Notes under the pieces: generated by a model
Told to the model about the DNA's origin: nothing
Database searches by the model: none
What the model saw: the letters and a program-made list of their open reading frames with translations, nothing else
Source of the DNA: a virus
Taxonomy: Duplodnaviria > Caudoviricetes
Length of the DNA stretch: 34,512 nucleotides
IMG/VR virus record: IMGVR_UViG_3300037457_000050
Location: 1 to 34,512 of that record
Direction: 5' to 3' (one strand)
In this document: positions 16,352-34,137 of the stretch, one piece after another
Numbering within the stretch: the stretch's first letter is position 1
How the letters are laid out: every line of letters starts with the position of its first letter
Position numbers and translations under genes: made by a program

Positions 16352-16515
16352 TCCACGTCCTCCCCATCCATCCCCAGCCACAGAACGCGCCGACGGCGGG
16401 CAATCTCCGTCGGCTCGTCGTCGCGTCCCTGAGTCTCAGCAGCTAGCGGCGGTGCCTCCGCGACGGGCGGATTCCCGTACCGCTCGCGGAGCAGGTCCCC
16501 AATTAGGTCGCCCAT
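16348..16515 (-). CDS. Small hypothetical protein, first gene of the replication module
   Basis: LLRERYG..EIARRRRVL; start uncertain (16515 or 16548). Confidence 0.55.
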   Translation of the reverse strand: MGDLIGDLLRERYGNPPVAEAPPLAAETQGRDDEPTEIARRRRVLWLGMDGEDVE

Positions 16516-16569
16516 CGCATTGGCCCCCGTAGTTGCCGCCCGTGCCACACAGAGCGTACTCTTAACTCG

Positions 16570-16599
16570 ACTCTAGCGAGTACAGCCAAGTGTACACAA
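16570..16599 (-). promoter_or_regulatory. Leftward promoter overlapped by GTGTACAC/GTAC boxes
   Basis: TTGTGT (16599-16594) N18 TAGAGT (16575-16570); GTGTACAC palindrome 16590-16597; locally AT-richer. Confidence 0.55.
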
Positions 16600-16676
16600 G
16601 AGCGGAGAGCCAAATGACAGCACCCGCGTCCACCCGTACGGACGTTCGCCTGATCCGCCGGTCGTACACTCCGGCC

Positions 16677-16898
16677 ATGGCCAGGCGGAGGATCGTCAGC
16701 ATCAGAACCGCCCGCGCCACCCTCAAGGACCGCATCGACGGGGCACAGGAACGCGAAGAGCACACGATCCTGCTCCGCCGTAGCGAGGTCGCAGCCGTGC
16801 TGGTCCCGCCCGGCTGGTACCGAGACGCCTGCCAGGCGCTTGGTGATCCGTGGGAGGACTGGCAGCCCCCGGAGGACGCAGACACCGACGAGTCCTGA
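16677..16898 (+). CDS. Orphan Phd/YefM-family antitoxin-like protein
   Basis: VSIRTARATLKDRIDGA....EHTILLRRSEVAAVLVP fits the Phd/YefM pattern; acidic tail; TACACT -10 (16665-16670) 6 nt before ATG (leaderless). Confidence 0.75.
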   Translation: MARRRIVSIRTARATLKDRIDGAQEREEHTILLRRSEVAAVLVPPGWYRDACQALGDPWEDWQPPEDADTDES

Positions 16899-22335: not shown

Positions 22336-22693
22336 GCGCCTCCCCCTTCGCCAGCGCCTCAAGCTCTGCCCGGATCTGGCCGGAGAGCCACTGTTGCGGC
22401 CTCCACAGCCGCCACGGCTGCCCGGATGCGAGCAGCACGTCCCGCCACCGCCGCTGGTCCGGGTCCAGGCTGCCGGTGGTGCTCTTGGTCTCCGGCAGCA
22501 GCAGCCCACCCGGGCCGGCGATCGCCAGGTCCGGGAACCCGCGCGTGCCCTGGATCGGCGTGCGCCAGCCTTTGGCGGTGCGGGCCGGCCGGCAGTGGTG
22601 CACCAGCAGCCCCAGCCAGGCGGCGTGCTCCAGCACGGCCCGGAGTAACTGGTCCTCCGACACCTGGGCGGCGAGTACGTCCCGGGCGTTCAT
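22328..22693 (-). CDS. VRR-NUC domain nuclease
   Basis: SEDQL..GFPDL..ETK..G.L..DQ..W pattern. Confidence 0.85.
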   Translation of the reverse strand: MNARDVLAAQVSEDQLLRAVLEHAAWLGLLVHHCRPARTAKGWRTPIQGTRGFPDLAIAGPGGLLLPETKSTTGSLDPDQRRWRDVLLASGQPWRLWRPQQWLSGQIRAELEALAKGEARV

Positions 22694-22953
22694 GCCGGCT
22701 CCCCGGCCTCGGCCGGGCGTAGCAGCTTGCGCCGCTCCCGCTCGGACAGCCCACCCCACACGCCATACTTCTGCCTGGTGTCCAGGGCGTACTCCAGACA
22801 CTCAGGCTGGACCTCGCAGCGTCCGCAGACCCGCTTCGCCTCCCGTGTCGAGCCGCCCTTCTCCGGAAAGAACGCCTCCGGGTCGGTCTGCGCGCACAGG
22901 CCAACTTCGAAGAACTCCGGGTAGCCGCCGAGCTGGCCCAGGATGTCAGCCAC
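22690..22953 (-). CDS. whiB: WhiB-family transcription regulator (WhiB2/WhmD-like)
   Basis: LCAQTDPEAFFPEKGGSTREAKRVCGRCEV..CLEYAL..GVWGGLSERERRKL; four Cys. Confidence 0.97.
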   Translation of the reverse strand: MADILGQLGGYPEFFEVGLCAQTDPEAFFPEKGGSTREAKRVCGRCEVQPECLEYALDTRQKYGVWGGLSERERRKLLRPAEAGEPA

Positions 22954-24500: not shown

Positions 24501-24847
24501 CGGGCCACCGCCGCGGCATCCGCCACCTCGGCATAGCGCTTCACGGCCGCGTCCAGTTCCTCCACCGGAACCCGGCCAGGCCGGTAGTCCTTGGCGTATC
24601 CGCGCGGCGCCTCGGTGATCGTGCCCTCGGCGTCCAGGTAGAAGTAGGAGAACTTCTCCGTCACCGTGCCGCCCCGAACAGAGGAACCAGCGTCGACCCG
24701 AATCGAGTAGGTCCCGTCACCCTTCTTCCGCACCGCCGGGTAGGTGGTCAGCCCGTTGATGCCGTACAACTGGAACGGCACCAGCCGGAACCGCTGCTCG
24801 ATCTCCGCGAACTGGATCACCCGCGCCGGCTTCGTCTTCGCTGCCAT
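24497..24847 (-). CDS. Hypothetical protein
   Basis: GAGGAG RBS before ATG 24847; strong GC3 codon bias. Confidence 0.75.
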   Translation of the reverse strand: MAAKTKPARVIQFAEIEQRFRLVPFQLYGINGLTTYPAVRKKGDGTYSIRVDAGSSVRGGTVTEKFSYFYLDAEGTITEAPRGYAKDYRPGRVPVEELDAAVKRYAEVADAAAVAR

Positions 24848-24848
24848 A

Positions 24849-25307
24849 TCAGCTCTCCTCGCTTCCGTCGTTGCTCTGGTTGGGCGGCCACCGCACCGGC
24901 CGGGCCGGGCCACGCGCCGCGATCGTGAACTCCACATCCCAGTCCTCACCGGTGATAGGGCTGGAGAAGTGGGTGGTGAGTACCTCGCAGTCCACGGGGA
25001 TCAGCAGCGGCACCGGCGAGTTGTGCCGGCCTGCGTCCACCGACACCCCGTCCAGGTCACCGGAGATCAGGTCAATACCGTCCGGGTACAGGTCATCGAT
25101 GCCGGCGGGGCAAAACTCACACGACAGGTCCACCCCGGCACCGTCCTCCGGGTGTTCCAGCTCCAGCCACCACACGTGGCCGCGGGCGTCAGCGCACGCC
25201 TTCACCTCGGCCTGCCGTTGCGCCTCACCGGCCCGGTAGGCCAGTTCCTCCGGGCTGTCCGGGCGCGGTTCGTCCTGAACCCACGTGATCGTCGGCCGGC
25301 CGGCCAT
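24849..25307 (-). CDS. Hypothetical acidic protein
   Basis: TGATG overlap; GGAG RBS. Confidence 0.7.
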   Translation of the reverse strand: MAGRPTITWVQDEPRPDSPEELAYRAGEAQRQAEVKACADARGHVWWLELEHPEDGAGVDLSCEFCPAGIDDLYPDGIDLISGDLDGVSVDAGRHNSPVPLLIPVDCEVLTTHFSSPITGEDWDVEFTIAARGPARPVRWPPNQSNDGSEES

Positions 25308-25864
25308 CAGTTCCACTCCCTGTTGTCCTGGTTGGGTGGGTGGAGGCTGTACCGCGCGTTCGCGGTCAGGTACACCCACCGGCTGCCCCGGCGGATCAGC
25401 ACCGCCACACGGGCCGGATTGGCGCCCTGGGGCACCAGCCAGCCATCCCGCTGCGCCTCAGCCCGGCGCGACTCCACCTCGCCATGGCAGACCGGGCAGA
25501 GAATGCCGAGGTTCGGCAGGCTGTTCGTGTCCGCCGCGCTGGACCCGCCTGCGCCGCGTGGCCGGCGGTGGTGCACATGCCAGTCGCGGCCACGCACCGG
25601 CCCCAGCCCGTTCGAGCACCGCTCACACGCCCAGCCGGCACGCTCCAGCACGGCCTCCACCGTCAGACGGTCGGGTCCGGTTGGGCTGGAGCGGCCCGGG
25701 AACACCGGGCGGACCGGCTTACCGGCCGCATCCGCCGCCTCCTGCTGGCGGCGGCCGACCTGAGCCAGCCCCACCCGCCGGGCCAGCGCTTTGCCGGCGG
25801 CCAGTGCCTTGCCGGGCTTGAGCCCGGTCCGGGACCGCAGCTGCTGCCTACGCGTCAACGTCAT
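25307..25864 (-). CDS. HNH endonuclease
   Basis: RAGWACERC..HHRRPRG.GG..NL..LC..CH. Confidence 0.85.
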   Translation of the reverse strand: MTLTRRQQLRSRTGLKPGKALAAGKALARRVGLAQVGRRQQEAADAAGKPVRPVFPGRSSPTGPDRLTVEAVLERAGWACERCSNGLGPVRGRDWHVHHRRPRGAGGSSAADTNSLPNLGILCPVCHGEVESRRAEAQRDGWLVPQGANPARVAVLIRRGSRWVYLTANARYSLHPPNQDNREWN

Positions 25865-26381
25865 CGCCGGCCACCTCCCCCTCGGCGTCGAAGTCGGGCG
25901 GCGGCAGGTGCAGCGACACGGCTACCAGGTCCAGCACCCGGCCGGCCGCCTCCGCTGCTGCTTCCCGGGCCGGCGTCTCCGGGGTGAAGGTCACCGAGCC
26001 CGGGTTGCCACCCGGGCGGACCTCCATGCCCGGGATCACCGTCCCGTCCCGATCGGTGACCACGTCGCCCTCGATGCGGGCGCCGTCCCGCAGCGCCTTG
26101 ACGAAGGCGGGACGGACCCGCAGCTCCACCTCATTCGGCCGGGTCAGGCTGACCCACTTCGCCAACGCCTCGTGGTCGGTCACCACTGGCGCGGTCTTCG
26201 ACACCGGCAGGAACACCAGCCCAACCTCGGGCGACCGCCACGACGGGGCGGTGCCCTGCTCGGTGAACTCCGCCGTGGCGTCGGCCTGCAACTGCCGGCG
26301 GAACGCCGCCGCCCGGGCGGTGGCCTGCTCTGCCACCCGCTCCCACAGCAGGATGTGCCGGATCACATCTGCCCGGTTCAT
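25848..26381 (-). CDS. Hypothetical protein next to the recombination ATPase
   Basis: ATGA overlap; VTDRDGTVIPGMEV motif. Confidence 0.75.
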   Translation of the reverse strand: MNRADVIRHILLWERVAEQATARAAAFRRQLQADATAEFTEQGTAPSWRSPEVGLVFLPVSKTAPVVTDHEALAKWVSLTRPNEVELRVRPAFVKALRDGARIEGDVVTDRDGTVIPGMEVRPGGNPGSVTFTPETPAREAAAEAAGRVLDLVAVSLHLPPPDFDAEGEVAGDDVDA

Positions 26382-27418
26382 GCCGGCACCGCCTCGGGTG
26401 CGGCCTTGCCGTTCTGGCCGTTCGACTGCCGGGACTCCAGCTCCGCCTTCGTTGCCAGGATCGCCCCGCGCACCTTGTCCGCCTCGGCTTCACTGATCTC
26501 GCCCTGCTCCACCGCCGCCGGCAGGTGCTGCTTCCACATGCGCTTCAGCGCGTCCAAGTCGGCCGTCTCGACGCCGACCATGAACGCCTTGAACCGCGGC
26601 GACTCGGGCGCATCGTCACCGGCCTGCATCGGCGCCAGCGCCCGCTCACCCCCGGTCCGCGGGTCCCACCCCAACACCTCGAAGACCAGCTTTTCGAGGC
26701 TGAACCCGGGCAGCGGTCGGGGCCGCGAGCCGGGCTTGACCCCGTTGCGCACCGAGCGGAGCTTGACCAGCGTCGGGTTGCCGTCGCGTGTCATCCGCAC
26801 CCACACCGGCACGTCGAACGGCATCGACTTCTGCCCCTCGACCCGGTAGTCCTTCTTCCCGACGACCGGCCGGCCGTTCTCGATCAGCGCCGTTTCCCGG
26901 CCGCGGGCCAGGATCACGACGATCCCGGGGAAGGTCAGCAGCGCGGTCATCAGCTTGCGCCACCGCTCGTTGGCGTCGTTCCAGTAGTTGGGGGTCACGT
27001 CGATCTCGGCGTTCGGGTCCGCCGCCAGCTTCTTCCGGTTGGCGGTGGAGCCCTTGGCCCGGTTGTGCGCCCAGTCGGACAGCAGCTCCCAGATCGCGCC
27101 CACCTGGTCGATCACCAACACCAACGGCTTGTCACCGGCAGCCTTCGCCCGGGCCGCCTCATCCTTGGCCTCGATGACCTGGCCGTAGATGTCATGCCAG
27201 GTGCCGTTGTGCTCGATGATCTCGTAGCGGACGCCGGGGATCTCCCCGTACTCGTCGGCGGTGTTCTCGGTGCCGACCTGCAACCACACGGTCCGGCCCA
27301 CTCTGTCCGACGCGGACAGCTCGGCTGCCGACCAGCTCTTGCCGGCGCCTTCGTCGCCTTCTAGCAGGATCACCGGTGGCGGGATCTTGCCGGTCGGCTT
27401 GCGCGTCTTGAGTGCCAT
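26378..27418 (-). CDS. AAA-family ATPase (AAA_24/Sak4-like recombination protein)
   Basis: Walker A GDEGAGKS; Walker B VLVIDQ; MALKTRKPTG N-terminus; GGAGG RBS. Confidence 0.85.
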   Translation of the reverse strand: MALKTRKPTGKIPPPVILLEGDEGAGKSWSAAELSASDRVGRTVWLQVGTENTADEYGEIPGVRYEIIEHNGTWHDIYGQVIEAKDEAARAKAAGDKPLVLVIDQVGAIWELLSDWAHNRAKGSTANRKKLAADPNAEIDVTPNYWNDANERWRKLMTALLTFPGIVVILARGRETALIENGRPVVGKKDYRVEGQKSMPFDVPVWVRMTRDGNPTLVKLRSVRNGVKPGSRPRPLPGFSLEKLVFEVLGWDPRTGGERALAPMQAGDDAPESPRFKAFMVGVETADLDALKRMWKQHLPAAVEQGEISEAEADKVRGAILATKAELESRQSNGQNGKAAPEAVPA

Positions 27419-27666
27419 CACACGTCCTCCAGTCGCTTCATCCGGGCCTCTTCGGCACACAGCGCCCGGTCCTCATCGGTCAGTTCGGAGGCCGGCCCCA
27501 GGTCCGGGTCCCGCACCGACCGGCCGTCCGGCCCGTACACCCACCCGGTCCGCTCGCACACGGTCCGCCCGTCCGGCTGCTGCCGGGCAGTGCCGCCGCA
27601 ACCCAGACCCGGGCACGGCACCCGCACCACCAGCTGCCCGGCGTACCGGTCGACCATGCCGCTCAT
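27418..27666 (-). CDS. Hypothetical protein
   Basis: ATGA overlap; CPGLGC. Confidence 0.65.
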   Translation of the reverse strand: MSGMVDRYAGQLVVRVPCPGLGCGGTARQQPDGRTVCERTGWVYGPDGRSVRDPDLGPASELTDEDRALCAEEARMKRLEDV

Positions 27667-28015: not shown

Positions 28016-28378
28016 CGGCTCGGGCTGGACGTGCTGGGCGTTGCGGCGCAGAGCCCGCCGGTACGCGTCGGCCACCTCCGCCGGCACTACGGTCAGCAGC
28101 AGTTCGTCGGCCTGTAGCTCGGCCAGTTCGGGGTCTTCGGTGATCGCGTCCAGCTCGGCGACCACTCCGGCGACAGCCGCCGACGCGGCGGGCTGCCCTA
28201 CCAGCTGGGCCGCAAGCTCGGCGGTTAGTGCCGCGATCAGCTGGGCGACCTTGTCCCGGTCCAGCAGCACCACGGTGGTCTCACCGAACGCACTCTCGAT
28301 TGCGAGCACGGTGCAAGCCGGGTAGCGGCTGTCGCGGGTGACGTGGACCTGGGTGGTGCCGTGGCGGATGGTGGTCAT
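27998..28378 (-). CDS. Hypothetical protein
   Basis: AAGGAG RBS; TGATG overlap. Confidence 0.7.
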   Translation of the reverse strand: MTTIRHGTTQVHVTRDSRYPACTVLAIESAFGETTVVLLDRDKVAQLIAALTAELAAQLVGQPAASAAVAGVVAELDAITEDPELAELQADELLLTVVPAEVADAYRRALRRNAQHVQPEPAGGQR

Positions 28379-29217
28379 CAGCGTGCTCCTTCAAGCTCAG
28401 GCTGGATGGTCAGCGGCTGCGTTCCGCCTAGCCGGCGGTGCAGCTCATGCAGACCCTTGACGGTCACCCGCACCTGCGGCGGGTCGATGACCAGCTCGGC
28501 GGTACGGGGGTGGTAGTGGGATGCGGGCAGTTCCGACAGTCGACCGGTGTCTACGGCGGACTGGTACGGGCGCCACCGCTGGTCGGCCCGCTGCCGGTAC
28601 GCCCAGCCGTATTCGCCGAGCAGGGTGAACAGCCGCCCTTGGCCGAGCTTGATCGCTGGGTCGCGGGAGAGCACCTTCGCCGCGTCGGCGACCGAGTAGT
28701 CACCGGCGCCGGTGGCGAGCACATCCCAGGACCGGGCCTTCGGCGCGGCCACCTCAAGCGCGGCCCGCTGCCGCTCGATCTCCTCGGCCTGATCCGCGGC
28801 CAGCCGCAGCGCCTCGGCGTACGTGGCGGGCAGCGCGAACCGCTGTGCCGCAACCTCCGCCTCACGGGTACGTTGGGCGAAGTACGTCTGTGCGTGCGCA
28901 ATCTGCGGCTTGCGCGGATCGCCGTTCATCGCGATCAAGTAGCAGGCATACCGGCTGAGCCGGTAGTCGGTGCTGGGTCGACCCGGACCGCTGGATTCTT
29001 GCCGAAGCCGGCAAAAATGCTGCTGGGGCTCCTGTCCAGAGTTTTGGGCCGCAGCCACTGCCCGCTCGATCGCATCCTCGAACCGGCGCCACTGGTCATA
29101 GCCCAGCGGACCTTGGAGATCACGAGCCGACCACCACTCGCCTTGCTCGTCCTCACGCTTGATCGCGTCGAACGGGCTCGGCCCAACGGCTGGTACGGGC
29201 AGCGGAACCTGGGTCAC
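28378..29217 (-). CDS. Phage antirepressor (DinD/Bro-N-like N-terminus + ANT/KilA-C)
   Basis: SPFDAIK..EWWSARDL..LGY..W..F..DYRLSRYACYLIAMNGDPRK; LPATYAEALR; YSVADAAKVL..GQGRLF..QVRVTVKGL. Confidence 0.92.
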   Translation of the reverse strand: MTQVPLPVPAVGPSPFDAIKREDEQGEWWSARDLQGPLGYDQWRRFEDAIERAVAAAQNSGQEPQQHFCRLRQESSGPGRPSTDYRLSRYACYLIAMNGDPRKPQIAHAQTYFAQRTREAEVAAQRFALPATYAEALRLAADQAEEIERQRAALEVAAPKARSWDVLATGAGDYSVADAAKVLSRDPAIKLGQGRLFTLLGEYGWAYRQRADQRWRPYQSAVDTGRLSELPASHYHPRTAELVIDPPQVRVTVKGLHELHRRLGGTQPLTIQPELEGAR

Positions 29218-29411
29218 CGTGGAAACGCCTCCTCCGCGATCGTCATCTCGCGGTCCGGCTGGACCGCGGCGAACGGGTTGGCGAGTTGGCCGGCGACGCC
29301 AGTGCGGGCGGCCCGTCCGGCCTGTTTCCGCTGCGCCCGGAGTGTGGAGACCCGCTGAGCGTGGCGTGCCCTCCGCTGCTCCCGGTCCCGGTCCGCTCCG
29401 GTGCTGTTCAC
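29214..29411 (-). CDS. Small basic hypothetical protein, first gene of the antirepressor module
   Basis: GTG 29411 with GGAGG upstream; GTGA overlap with the antirepressor. Confidence 0.6.
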   Translation of the reverse strand: MNSTGADRDREQRRARHAQRVSTLRAQRKQAGRAARTGVAGQLANPFAAVQPDREMTIAEEAFPR

Positions 29412-29453
29412 TGGCCTCGCCTCCCGCTGTTGTACGTCTCCGTTCTGTACGTC

Positions 29454-29482
29454 AGCGTACACTACGCTACCGTACTGGGCAA
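29454..29482 (-). promoter_or_regulatory. Leftward promoter embedded in a GTAC-box array
   Basis: TTGCCC (29482-29477) N17 TACGCT (29459-29454); six GTAC between 29432 and 29504. Confidence 0.6.
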
Positions 29483-29513
29483 TGCGGGAACGTACGTCAT
29501 GTACCCTCAGCGC

Positions 29514-29738
29514 ATGGAGACTGACCGTCCGGCTGAGGTCGGTACAACCGATCTCCGTAAGGAACTCGCGGACGTGCTGAACAAAGCCGTCTACGGCGAG
29601 ATCACGCTGGTGACCTCGCGCGGCCGGCCAATCGCCGGCATCGTCCCCGCGCCCGATGCCGAACGCCTGTGGCGCGAGCGGCAGCGACAGCGGAGCAACG
29701 AGACGCGTCACGACGATCGCCCTCGCTCCTCGGCGTAG
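29514..29738 (+). CDS. Orphan Phd/YefM-family antitoxin-like protein
   Basis: EVGTTDLRKELADVLNKAVYGEITLVTSRGRPIAGIVP; TACCCT -10 (29502-29507) 6 nt before ATG (leaderless). Confidence 0.85.
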   Translation: METDRPAEVGTTDLRKELADVLNKAVYGEITLVTSRGRPIAGIVPAPDAERLWRERQRQRSNETRHDDRPRSSA

Positions 29739-29881
29739 AGCTGCGCGTACCGCTCCGGGTGCTCGCGGGCGAGCCTGGCCAGCGCGCGGTTCCGCGCGGC
29801 AGCGCGCCGTCGCTGCGCCTGACGCTGCGCCGTGCTGTAGCTCCGCTCGCGAAGCCCGGTCCGGGTGGTTGGGGTGCTCAC
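29708..29881 (-). CDS. Small basic protein (57 aa, below ORF-track cutoff)
   Basis: Translated by hand: MSTPTT..ARNRALARLAREHPERYAQLYAEERGRSS; GTGA overlap. Confidence 0.6.
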   Translation of the reverse strand: MSTPTTRTGLRERSYSTAQRQAQRRRAAARNRALARLAREHPERYAQLYAEERGRSS

Positions 29882-30859: not shown

Positions 30860-31136
30860 GGTCGTCTCCTCCTCTGCGGATGGTCGGCCACCAGCCGGCC
30901 GGGCTGGTCAGCACTGACCGGAGCCGGTCAGCCGGCGGGCGGCAGGCACCGGTGTGCGGCCGGCGGCGGCGGCCCCGGTAGCGGGGCAGCTCCACCGTGT
31001 CCGGGGTGAACAGCGGGTCGCCCTGGTCGTCCTGGTCGGCCCGGTGCTGCCGGGAGTCGGCCCACGCCCAGGCGCCGACGGCGAACAGGCCCGCGGTGAG
31101 CACACACACGGCGGACAGGACCACCCACAGCATCAC
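30852..31136 (-). CDS. Single-TM membrane protein
   Basis: N-terminal hydrophobic helix; GTGA overlap. Confidence 0.65.
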   Translation of the reverse strand: MMLWVVLSAVCVLTAGLFAVGAWAWADSRQHRADQDDQGDPLFTPDTVELPRYRGRRRRPHTGACRPPADRLRSVLTSPAGWWPTIRRGGDDRG

Positions 31137-33952
31137 CGGCCCACCCCCGCCAGGTCGATGCCGGTGATGGCCTCAGCCACCGCTGCGATCAGGTCGCGGG
31201 CGGCTGGCGGGGTGACTGCGTTGCCGAGCATCCGGGTCCGCTCCCGCTTGTTGCCCAGCAGCACGAACTGTGGCGCGAACGCCATACCGGCCTTGATCTC
31301 GTGCACGTCGAGCATCCGGAACGTGCAGTCCTCCACCGCCACCGCGGTACCCAGCAACGCGTCGCCCTGCACGGTGGTCTGCGTCGGCATCGGCTCGGCA
31401 AGCGGGCGCAGATCCCCGGTGTCGTAGCCGTAGAGCACGTGGTCCCACCGGATCAGCGTCTGTTTGCTCTCCGCCAGGATCGTCCGCAGCGGCTGGTTCA
31501 CCGGGGTAGACATCTGCCCTTGGTCGCCGCGGGCGGTCAGGTTCCGCATCACCAGGGCGTGGTGATAGCCGCCGGCTGCCAATGTCACCAGCGGATGCTC
31601 GCCGGCTGGTCTGGCGTTTCCGTTGCGGCGCAGCGGCACCACCAGGGCGTCCTGTAGCCGGGCCGTCTGCGCTCTCGCCGGGCCGGTCACCGGGCGGGCA
31701 TGCACGTTCTCGCGGCCCTCCACCGGCACCAGCAGCGGGTCGACCAGGGCGTGGTTGGACCCGTCGGCAACCACGGTGGCCATCGGGTGATCGACGCCGA
31801 TCGTCCGTGGCCGGCCCGACCGCAGCACGGTCAGAAACGGGCTGACCACGGCGTCGTTGTCCGTGGCCGTGCGGGTGGCCATCGGCCGGTCAACCGTCTG
31901 GGCTTCCCGGCGCCGGGCCCCGCCAGCCGGCACCAGCAGCGGCGTGGCCAGTCCGTGGTGCCCGCCACCGGCGGAGACGGTGTGCAGCGGCTCGTCGACA
32001 CCCTGGGTGCCTGCGTTCGTCCGCATGACCGCCAGGAACGAGGCCGTACCGTTCCCGTTGGCGGCCGGCCGCGAGTAGCGAACCAGCCCGGCCTTTATGC
32101 GGGCCAGGGTCTTCGGCTTCAGCGGCCTGGCCCGGTCGCCGATCCGCTCCGCCGGCAGCAACCAGTCGATCGCGGACGCTGCCGGAAGGATGTACGGCCG
32201 CACCACCGCGTTCTCGCAGCTGGTCGACGGGCAGCGGTAGACGTATTGGGAGCCGTAGCGCATCGGCCGCCGCGGACCCGGCTTCGGCGCGTACACCGCC
32301 CGTACGTCCACATCGCACACCGGGCAGCGGGCCAGTGGACGGGTCCACCGGTCCAGATCCGGCGCCTTGTACCGGGACTGCCAGAACACGACATACACCC
32401 GGTCCCGAAGCTGCGGCGCCGGCGCGCCGAGCTGGTGAGCGAACGCGGAGTTGACGGTGACCACCCGGTGCCGGTAGCCGAGCTTGTGCATCTCGCCCAG
32501 CCACCGGTCGAACTCGGCCCACTTCAGGATGTCCGGCACGTTCTCCACCACCACCGCCTTGTACCGGTGGTACCGGCTGAACCGGGGCACGTCCTCCATC
32601 TGCACCCGCGACCGCTGCACCGCCTCGGGCGGCAACGGCTCGTCGAACAGACCCGGCTGGCCCGCGTAGTCGGTACGCTCCCCGCGGGCCACGGACCAGG
32701 TGGTGCAGTTGTGGACGACGATGCCGTCCGCGACGAACGAGTGGTCCTCCTCCACGGTCAGGTCGTAGACCAGTGTCATATCGCTGGCCGGCCTGATCGA
32801 CTTGACCGGCGCCCACGTGTGCATCGGTGTAGCAACGGTGCTTGGCCGCTTCTGCTCGTACAGCCACACCACGGTCCACTGCGGGCGCGCTCGGCCGGTG
32901 CGACCGTCAATCCTCCACGTGTCACGGTGCTGATATTGCAGCTGGGTTCGGTGACCGAGGGACTCGGCTAGCAACCGAACTCCGAGGGCGAGGCTCTTGG
33001 AGACGGAGGCGGCCCGCCACTCGCGGCCGTCGTTGTAGCCGTCGGCCGACAGGTACCCATCAAGCAGTGCGCGCCGCCACGCCTGCGGCGCACCAAGCAC
33101 CCATGCTGGAACGGTCTTCCCGTGGGCGCGGTGCCCGAAGTGCCGTACAAGCCATTGCGCGAGTTCGGAATGGCTGTTGGCAAACGCCACCGCGGTCCGA
33201 AGCTGACGGCGTGACCAGGTCAGCTCCGGCGCGCACTGATCGCAGTCGTGGTGCACCCATGACAGGGCTTTCGCTAGATCATCGGCCTCATGGTTGCCGC
33301 AAGTAACGAAGGTCTCGTCGTTGCCGTTCGGTCGGACACGAAGGGAACCGTCACCGAGCCACCGCCCAACGAACCAGGCGAACCGCGGATCATCCACGTG
33401 AAGCGGGCGACGGCCACCGATCCTGGGAACGTCCGAGTCGGGGAACAGGTTAGGCGTGGCCCACAGCGCGGTCCCGTCAGCCGGAACGTCGCCGACGTTC
33501 ACCCACTGGGGCGAAGCTCCGTCGGTACGGACCCAGATCGGATGGTTGGCTGTAACCTCGATCCCGCGCGTGTTGCCGTGGCCGCCGAGTAAGACGGTGG
33601 GTGCTTGGCGGCTCATCGTGTTGGTGACGCGTCGGTATCGGCCAACGTGCGTCAGAACACGGTCGCCGGTGTTGACGTTCTGGATCGGGACCAAGCCACG
33701 TTCGGTCAGGACGAGCGTCCCGGCCGCGAAGCACTCCGGGCTGAACCAGCCGATGTCAGTGGACGGGTAGCGCCGCGGGTCGGCCACGGTCACATCGATC
33801 ACGTCGTGATCCACATGGGGCATGTTGGTGTTGTGGACCTCGATCGCCAGCGCCCAGTGGTTGATCGCGTATCTCACCCGGACGCCAGGTACCAGCTCCG
33901 CGCCGGAGGACGAACCGCCCGCGCCACAATAAAAATCCATCACGGTCAGCAC
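31133..33952 (-). CDS. DNA (cytosine-5) methyltransferase with intein
   Basis: Motif I DFYCGAGG; motif IV SPE|C; VVENV; QLRDRVY; motif X LGNAVTPP; start GTG 33952 or ATG 33940. Confidence 0.95.
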   Translation of the reverse strand: MLTVMDFYCGAGGSSSGAELVPGVRVRYAINHWALAIEVHNTNMPHVDHDVIDVTVADPRRYPSTDIGWFSPECFAAGTLVLTERGLVPIQNVNTGDRVLTHVGRYRRVTNTMSRQAPTVLLGGHGNTRGIEVTANHPIWVRTDGASPQWVNVGDVPADGTALWATPNLFPDSDVPRIGGRRPLHVDDPRFAWFVGRWLGDGSLRVRPNGNDETFVTCGNHEADDLAKALSWVHHDCDQCAPELTWSRRQLRTAVAFANSHSELAQWLVRHFGHRAHGKTVPAWVLGAPQAWRRALLDGYLSADGYNDGREWRAASVSKSLALGVRLLAESLGHRTQLQYQHRDTWRIDGRTGRARPQWTVVWLYEQKRPSTVATPMHTWAPVKSIRPASDMTLVYDLTVEEDHSFVADGIVVHNCTTWSVARGERTDYAGQPGLFDEPLPPEAVQRSRVQMEDVPRFSRYHRYKAVVVENVPDILKWAEFDRWLGEMHKLGYRHRVVTVNSAFAHQLGAPAPQLRDRVYVVFWQSRYKAPDLDRWTRPLARCPVCDVDVRAVYAPKPGPRRPMRYGSQYVYRCPSTSCENAVVRPYILPAASAIDWLLPAERIGDRARPLKPKTLARIKAGLVRYSRPAANGNGTASFLAVMRTNAGTQGVDEPLHTVSAGGGHHGLATPLLVPAGGARRREAQTVDRPMATRTATDNDAVVSPFLTVLRSGRPRTIGVDHPMATVVADGSNHALVDPLLVPVEGRENVHARPVTGPARAQTARLQDALVVPLRRNGNARPAGEHPLVTLAAGGYHHALVMRNLTARGDQGQMSTPVNQPLRTILAESKQTLIRWDHVLYGYDTGDLRPLAEPMPTQTTVQGDALLGTAVAVEDCTFRMLDVHEIKAGMAFAPQFVLLGNKRERTRMLGNAVTPPAARDLIAAVAEAITGIDLAGVGR
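31355..32040 (-). repeat. About seven degenerate 30-35 aa repeats in the MTase variable region
   Basis: VDEPLHTV..HHGL / VDRPMATR / VDHPMATV..NHAL / VTGPARAQT / EHPLVTL..HHAL / VNQPLRTI / LAEPMPTQT. Confidence 0.7.
32708..33733 (-). mobile_element. Intein (342 aa) with LAGLIDADG homing endonuclease
   Basis: Starts CFAAGTLVLT; block B IEVTANHPIW; WFVGRWLGDGS and LLDGYLSADG; ends VYDLTVEEDHSFVADGIVVHN followed by Cys. Confidence 0.95.
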
Positions 33953-34137
33953 CCGCCCACCCCCGCCGGTTGGCGGGGCCAGCACATCTCCGCGGCCTGC
34001 CGCATCCCGCCCCGGCCCATCCGCCACATCCGGTGCCCCAACACCCGGCCGCCGCGGCCAGTCGGCGCCGGTCCGCCGCACTCCGGGCACTCAACCGTGG
34101 GCAGGGTCGCGGCGGTCAAGGGGTGCACCCTTGCCAC
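33946..34137 (-). CDS. Small zinc-ribbon protein
   Basis: PTVECPECG..H..C, similar to 19279..19485; start uncertain. Confidence 0.5.
   Translation of the reverse strand: MARVHPLTAATLPTVECPECGGPAPTGRGGRVLGHRMWRMGRGGMRQAAEMCWPRQPAGVGGC

Follow-up and report, generated by a model that had tools for sequence, protein, structure and literature searches.

A stand-alone Phd/YefM-fold gene beside a predicted two-way promoter: a probable exchangeable accessory regulator in actinophage early operons

The window, a virus record of 34,512 nucleotides (34.5 kb; Caudoviricetes, IMG/VR record IMGVR_UViG_3300037457_000050), has a GC content of 70.6% and shows, according to a codon-based gene call, a nearly continuous minus-strand run of early genes. 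Three genes lie on the plus strand: tnpB (1386-2492) and two Phd-like genes (16677-16898 and 29514-29738). The GC content, a WhiB gene and homologs in Streptomyces point to an actinobacterial origin of the phage. The window ends before the operon head, and the stretch that would hold the phage's own cI gene lies outside of it. Also encoded are a WhiB-family regulator (22690-22953) and a C5 DNA methyltransferase that is split by an intein, which contains a LAGLIDADG endonuclease domain (31133-34090).

The gene at 29514-29738 encodes a protein with the Phd/YefM fold proposed in the first-pass annotation. The protein matches PF02604 (E-value 2.9e-7, 30.6 bits, cut-off 29.8) and TIGR01552 (36.8 bits, cut-off 20.8), passing both curated cut-offs, and its AlphaFold model (pLDDT 89.7) has the topology β-α-α-β-β-α, similar to that of P1 Phd. 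The top Foldseek matches of the model are the N-terminal domain of VapB46 (6jqy, rmsd 1.0 over 43 columns) and P1 Phd (3hs2, 4zm2), with the PfiAT structure also among the matches; a Pfam scan of the protein reveals no peptidase domain. The description of the gene as toxin-less holds as well, as phd has no co-oriented neighbour in the window and no known toxin gene adjoins it. The convergent 57-aa ORF at its 3′ end also adjoins the Phd gene in L036, the nearest DNA-bearing relative.

The genes 3′ of the predicted outward promoter are, in order, a 65-aa ORF, an antirepressor-like gene, three small ORFs and a Sak4-like gene, with overlapping stop and start codons throughout. Both genes that had been placed under the leftward promoter, the antirepressor-like and the Sak4-like one, are thus present in the run, but the first leftward gene is the 65-aa ORF and the Sak4-like gene lies four ORFs beyond the antirepressor-like gene. 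A homolog of the latter is divergent from Phd in L036 and is missing in the sister record L118. The features of the cassette and its surroundings are listed in Table 1.

Table 1. Features of the Phd cassette and associated genes in the window (a dot indicates that no strand is assigned).
Feature	Position	Strand	Basis
AAA_24/Sak4-like recombination gene, part of coupled run with antirepressor-like gene	26378..27418	-	
Bro-N/ANT(KilAC) antirepressor-like gene	28378..29217	-	PF02498, PF03374; phrog_63/130
65-aa ORF, first gene 3′ of outward promoter; homolog kept in L118, which lacks Phd	29214..29411	-	
Exchangeable slot, non-homologous in L118; L118 flanks match at 75% and 90%	29407..29849	.	
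Span with two further GTAC boxes, 29432 (predicted leader) and 29472 (between promoters)	29432..29475	.	
GTAC pair, 10-bp spacing, family core GTACnnnAnnGTAC, over outward -10 and +1	29447..29460	.	
Predicted outward -10 (TACGCT); predicted +1 at 29446	29454..29459	-	position of leaderless ATG in relatives
Possible -35 (TTGCCC), unconserved in family	29477..29482	-	
GTAC pair, 9-bp spacing, over predicted phd promoter	29492..29504	.	GTAC positions
Predicted phd -10 (TACCCT), in GTAC box 29501, 6 nt 5′ of ATG	29502..29507	+	
Stand-alone Phd/YefM-fold gene, leaderless start, 74 aa	29514..29738	+	Pfam, TIGR01552, AlphaFold, Foldseek
57-aa convergent ORF, 31-nt overlap with phd 3′ end	29708..29881	-	no family match
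Second, more divergent Phd-like gene, counter-oriented, 5′ of endonuclease, replication initiator and primase-helicase genes	16677..16898	+	

Six GTAC boxes (29432, 29447, 29457, 29472, 29492 and 29501) extend over both predicted promoters, at exactly the positions claimed earlier. None of the six is a perfect TGTACA. The window contains 137 GTAC tetranucleotides in total; when these were placed at random, a group of six within 69 bp arose 3 times in 5000, so the cluster upstream of phd is beyond chance. The leaderless phd start with its -10 inside a GTAC box (gTACCCT-6 nt-ATG), another element of the first-pass annotation, is present in the sequence, and the TAnnnT-6 nt-ATG spacing is common to the homologous loci. 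Of the proposed leftward promoter, TTGCCC-N17-TACGCT, the letters are found on the minus strand, but the -35 hexamer TTGCCC is unconserved across the clade and was rejected as a family feature. In addition, a generic sigma-70 scan with an E. coli-based threshold called neither the phd nor the outward promoter; the -10 matches 3 of 6 positions. The leftward start is predicted at 29446 because relatives of the cassette have a leaderless outward ATG 7 nt past the hexamer. No U-tract terminator was found on the minus strand upstream of the cassette, so that transcription starting at the main early promoter could run on past it; the cassette is therefore more likely to supply an extra promoter than to gate the operon.

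The close homologs recovered in protein searches measure 56-82 aa, and their ends are unconserved. Using alignments and a profile built on the window's protein, 21 viral and 5 genome loci and 80 of 164 metagenome loci were fetched. L030, L034 and L035 were too weak to count as members and were left out. L001-L005, found by a single-protein search of viral contigs, were also discarded, as they represent a different reading frame of an unrelated gene. In a quick tree of 99 distinct rows, based on 63 columns only, the window protein falls within a clade of 66 rows with an SH-aLRT value of 93 (the tool's support mark is 95). The 66 members are distinct actinobacterial, mostly phage, proteins, with many Streptomyces loci being close kin, so that clade counts are not independent. 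The earlier suggestion of a reusable regulatory module is borne out by the recurrence of the layout across this clade. A Phd match above 80 bits occurs in only 3 of 401 Actinomycetes genomes, with the next scores dropping to 51, which indicates that chromosomes seldom carry a member of the clade and that phages are its main carriers.

A gene for a ParE/RelE, PIN, HepT or MazF toxin lies within 700 nt of none of the 66 clade rows, versus 26 of the 33 rows outside the clade. This comparison is based on 16 toxins taken from the fetched loci, and at least 300 nt of downstream DNA is available for 58 clade rows, less for 8. When 62 of the 70 upstream and 93 of the 97 downstream neighbours were scanned with Pfam, no Doc/Fic gene turned up beside phd either. 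A cognate co-transcribed toxin, as expected for a type II toxin-antitoxin system, is thus absent beside the window phd and among the clade neighbours scanned. The Phd proteins themselves are short, with a median length of 65 aa in the clade versus 91 aa in toxin-linked relatives. Residues beyond approximately position 50 are unconserved and the protein ends vary widely; as conservation stops there, the conserved C-terminal toxin-binding region of type II antitoxins is not found in the clade. Nor does any result support the idea that the protein senses proteolysis or host toxins.

A tblastn search of GenBank phages with the window protein gave no match, and with a Streptomyces homolog it returned only a distant relative, SF3 gp67. 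This gene of a Streptomyces phage (L117:3891-4189) is unannotated, Phd-like, oriented backwards in a leftward run and accompanied by two TGTACA boxes; being carried by a cultured phage, it offers an experimental handle on the backwards Phd layout. S. flavovirens phages are called virulent in the title of a published paper (PMC5336643). The nearest sub-clade of Phd genes (L038, L042 and L047) is translationally coupled to a gene of the pyridoxamine-5′-phosphate-oxidase family.

With two fusions, a truncated gene and a gene lacking upstream DNA set aside, the upstream regions of 62 clade loci were compared with those of 25 toxin-linked Phd loci. A leaderless start is found in 61/62 clade loci versus 11/25 toxin-linked ones, by a rule that favours leaderless starts in both groups. 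The mean number of GTAC per 110 nt is 2.8 in the clade, 2.2 in toxin-linked loci and 0.32 in the background. As GTAC is enriched in both groups alike, it is the usual operator core of Phd proteins, in line with the published work on YefM and Phd. The spacing of the boxes differs, however. Pairs with 10-bp spacing occur 67 times in the clade versus 3 times in toxin-linked loci, where 9-bp pairs are the usual arrangement 5′ of phd (18 times in 25 loci). The core GTACnnnAnnGTAC is present in 32/62 clade loci, in 2/25 toxin-linked loci and in 0/2744 background windows; on the opposite strand it reads TAC(A/G)CT-nnnGTAC-(+1), and in 9 of 10 cases (TnpB, GIY-YIG, HNH and other genes) the outward leaderless ATG is positioned exactly 7 nt past the hexamer. 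An outward -10 box is present in 42 of the 49 loci with a divergent gene versus 4 of the 11 without (p 0.002; two loci were relabelled by hand, and kin are not independent). A divergent gene within 150 nt is found for 41/60 clade loci versus 3/23 toxin-linked loci, a contrast that becomes weak at 300 nt (47/60 versus 15/23). The commonest form of the clade boxes is TGTACA (62/174), and 69 of the 174 boxes lie outside any TACnnT, which shows them to be more than by-products of -10 hexamers. As judged from these sequences, the traits specific to the clade are the 10-bp spacing and the reach of the boxes over the predicted outward promoter.

The identity of the divergent gene varies within the clade and includes a replication initiator, TnpB, GIY-YIG, HNH/EndoVII, a DnaB-like helicase and the antirepressor. 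A PHROG replication-initiation protein is divergent from Phd in 13 distinct rows or loci. An antirepressor takes this position only in the window and in L036, i.e. in 2 of about 49 divergent loci, and a search for the antirepressor gave five loci without Phd. A layout resembling that of P22 immI, with a small putative repressor divergent from a predicted promoter of an antirepressor-like gene, is seen in the window and L036 and is not general in the clade; nor do these numbers bear out the dedicated control of antirepressor and Sak4-like expression that was first proposed. Phd forms a backwards island among opposite-strand genes, either by itself or together with a single co-oriented gene, in 18 of 20 long loci picked by hand, and SF3 gp67 shares this layout.

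Natural exchange of the cassette is evident from L118, which is 96% identical to the window over 24520-27662. Its slot contains an unrelated gene for an 82-aa HTH-like protein and a GIY-YIG gene, which are also backwards (L118:1713-2700), together with four copies of a repeated TTGCG/CGCAA box and a promoter-like TTGCGC-18-TACTAT that faces the same operon. L118 contains neither Phd nor the antirepressor. Two further, related records, G001 (90% complete) and G002 (100%), share several early genes with the window, among them, at 90%, the one that flanks the slot; neither has a cassette at the slot or a PF02604 match. At the operon head, both carry an integrase gene together with XRE-type HTH genes, whose match is above the cut-off in G001 and below it in G002. 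All seven Phd-carrying virus records tested have an HTH_3 match above the cut-off, although proviral records can include host genes. A cI-type gene would be expected at the operon head beside integrase or cro, whereas the cassette is located mid-operon; the window's own head lies outside the record. The swap in L118, the absence from G001 and G002 and the separate HTH_3/XRE genes indicate that the cassette is accessory and exchangeable, and not the cI-like switch that the first-pass annotation had envisaged.

That annotation had also reported the same architecture at 16.6 kb. The copy at 16677-16898 is indeed a leaderless Phd-like gene (gTACACT-6 nt-ATG) with five GTAC at 16556-16664, but it is the weaker case, of a different subtype and without a 10-bp pair; its Pfam match (E 5e-5) is below the cut-off and it shares 25% identity with the 29514-29738 copy. 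The subtype in the region 16515-16898 resembles the C-terminal domains of GIY-YIG fusions.

A tnpB gene (368 aa) is inserted on the plus strand at 1365-2592 of the window, with a leaderless TATGAT-7 nt-GTG start, one GTAC just 5′ and no adjoining tnpA or Phd gene; four GTAC at 2291-2339 lie within tnpB codons and were set aside as a coding coincidence. Elsewhere, Phd is divergent from leaderless tnpB under a GTAC core in L026, L029, L164 (G084), L162/L163/L161 (G243), L054, L057, L063 and L084. L026, L029 and L164 have in common a Phd-tnpB unit of 1.35-1.43 kb with 68-71% identity and unrelated flanks, and G243 contains three partly decayed copies. From its sequence, the unit is likely a Phd-regulated TnpB element of the IS200/605 type.

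Small GIY-YIG proteins with swappable C-terminal DNA-binding domains are encoded approximately 15 nt behind the regulator in L011-L014, L016, L019, L028, L037, L039-L045, L110, L118, L024 and L066. Their C-terminal domains are Phd-like in most cases and, by eye, RHH- or HTH-like in others. In L024 and L066 the GIY-YIG domain is fused to a Phd of the window clade, next to another regulator with other boxes; 0 and 1 GTAC are found upstream, and no array. These two fusions, together with the HTH and GIY-YIG genes in the window's slot in L118, hint at a speculative and rather unlikely scenario, in which actinophage early operons would host interchangeable backwards cassettes (a Phd, RHH or HTH regulator with its own boxes and a two-way promoter) that compete for slots, with GIY-YIG proteins, by means of their swappable and mostly Phd-like C-terminal domains, cutting the operator arrays of rivals and replacing them by homing. 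If true, an antitoxin fold would serve two ends, repressing on its own (TnpB elements included) and directing a nuclease to its target.

With moderate confidence we consider the cassette to be an exchangeable, counter-oriented repressor with a predicted two-way promoter, acting as a negative-feedback limiter on downstream early genes; its role is likely that of a swappable accessory regulator, and not of the main switch between lysis and lysogeny. As in the P1 Phd and YefM operators with their GTAC core, a Phd dimer would bind the GTAC boxes and, when bound, would occlude the -10 and +1 of both its own and the outward promoter, resulting in repression. Entry of the DNA into a repressor-free cell would give a burst of outward transcription, to be followed by shut-off and then by silence in the prophage state, independent of a separate cI-type repressor. 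The targets would be whatever gene lies downstream, in the window the 65-aa ORF, the antirepressor-like gene and the Sak4-like gene. By analogy, the Phd cassette may work like Mnt/Arc, which have a ribbon-helix-helix fold, at P22 Pant.

The operators of YefM and Phd are reported to have a common GTAC core (PMC1802561). Free E. coli YefM is stated to bind more than 200-fold less than the complex (PMC1802561), and for S. lividans YefM alone no band shift is described at 2-8 µM (PMC3303803); a solo Phd could consequently be a poor repressor. In P1 Phd, a second dimer is reported to bind less readily, owing to the disordered tail, as long as Doc is not bound (PMC10135005). A lost or altered tail, combined with more boxes and one-turn spacing, would by analogy be a plausible route to toxin-independent repression.

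Alternatively, Phd could be the controller of a selfish nuclease cassette. In that role it would be likened to the C-proteins of restriction systems; the outward promoter would only relieve insertion polarity, and the window copy would be a remnant without nuclease that hardly matters for regulation of the antirepressor. A hand tally of clade rows, in which GIY-YIG, HNH/EndoVII or TnpB is the immediate neighbour or fusion partner in 35/66, speaks for this explanation, as do the HTH and GIY-YIG genes of L118 in the window's very slot, the Phd-TnpB unit of L026, L029 and L164, and the GIY-YIG partners with their swappable Phd-, RHH- or HTH-like domains. However, the other 31 rows have no nuclease neighbour, and many of these keep the frame, the leaderless start and the boxes. 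The nuclease-less window and L036 have six and five boxes, respectively, and the slot is often directly 5′ of a replication initiator. On balance this explanation, the main rival, appears unlikely. It seems improbable that the cassette is a cI-like switch between lysis and lysogeny, gating the antirepressor and having proteolysis or host toxins as the releasing signal. The divergent layout and the antirepressor downstream in the window and L036 agree with such a switch, the joint absence of Phd and antirepressor from L118 fits a Mnt-ant-like pairing, and P1 Phd is reported to be degraded by ClpXP (PMC10135005). Yet the antirepressor is rare among the divergent loci, integrase and XRE genes are separate in the relatives, HTH_3 matches (some maybe in host genes) accompany Phd in every record tested, the cassette is absent from G001 and G002, and the tail is unconserved.

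The remaining alternatives concern toxins. An orphan antitoxin that neutralises host RelE/Doc-type defence toxins, with boxes for autoregulation only, is quite improbable. Such proteins have been proposed as anti-addiction modules (PMC7354431), toxin-linked Phd genes also average 2.2 GTAC boxes, and P1 Phd itself is only about 73 aa, so that short length is no exclusion. Against this stand the lack of conservation past approximately position 50, the shorter median length than in toxin-linked relatives, and the outward -10/+1 box pair, which is a clade-specific trait and goes along with the presence of a divergent gene. It is very improbable indeed that Phd and the product of the 57-aa convergent ORF are a hitherto unrecognised pair, be it of toxin and antitoxin or of repressor and corepressor. 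The ORF does overlap the 3′ end of phd in both the window and L036, and a homolog of it is found on a contig of 11,424 nt, which is also the length of the contig with the closest Phd homolog. However, its profile matches no other fetched locus and a viral scan gave no relative; it has no Pfam, PHROG or NCBIfam match, it is convergent and not co-transcribed, and its first ~11 codons are common to a different gene in L118.

The limiter interpretation, which we favour, has several implications. Databases label the clade proteins 'type II TA antitoxin', despite the lack of a recognisable toxin partner and the distinct two-way operator. With this clade, the long-standing idea of solo antitoxins turned transcription factors gains a concrete and testable case. 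Replication, recombination and antirepressor genes of actinophages may be under a second layer of control that does not depend on cI, and one group of TnpB elements has a candidate for a repressor of its own. Moreover, the predicted promoter pair is compact and could be of use as a small autoregulated expression part for actinobacteria.

The Phd fold and the GTAC operator core are already known, and stand-alone regulatory use has been suggested in general terms. Searches of open-access text turned up no description of a toxin-free Phd clade, of a two-way 10-bp operator or of a link with TnpB/GIY-YIG. Makarova et al. (2009) suggested that solo antitoxin homologs may regulate diverse operons (PMC2701414); in the relevant part of that paper the suggestion is a general one, and no such clade, operator or phage layout is presented there. 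The PfiA/PfiT module of the Pf4 prophage is similar in that a Phd-like antitoxin resides in a prophage and a replication initiation gene changes in expression under the influence of the module (PMC7264888). Unlike the window Phd, which has no toxin, PfiA is reported to have a cognate toxin as corepressor and to bind an AATTC-N5 palindrome (PMC7264888). In P22 immI, Mnt represses ant, and the region is described as non-essential and not needed for lysogeny (PMC11016777). The window may resemble immI, a secondary region, apart from the main repressor, in which a small repressor limits antirepressor expression (PMC11016777), but its putative repressor has the Phd and not the Mnt/Arc fold, there is one regulator, and the target is variable and seldom an antirepressor. 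The closest parallels are P1 Phd and YefM/Axe (PF02604, TIGR01552), which have the same N-terminal DNA-binding fold and for which GTAC/TGTACA operator cores overlapping the -10 are reported (PMC1802561, PMC3303803). In contrast to these systems, the clade has no Doc, YoeB, RelE or VapC partner and its tail is unconserved; the spacing of the boxes is 10 bp instead of 12-13 bp, the boxes also cover the predicted outward promoter, and the genes are embedded backwards in phage early operons.
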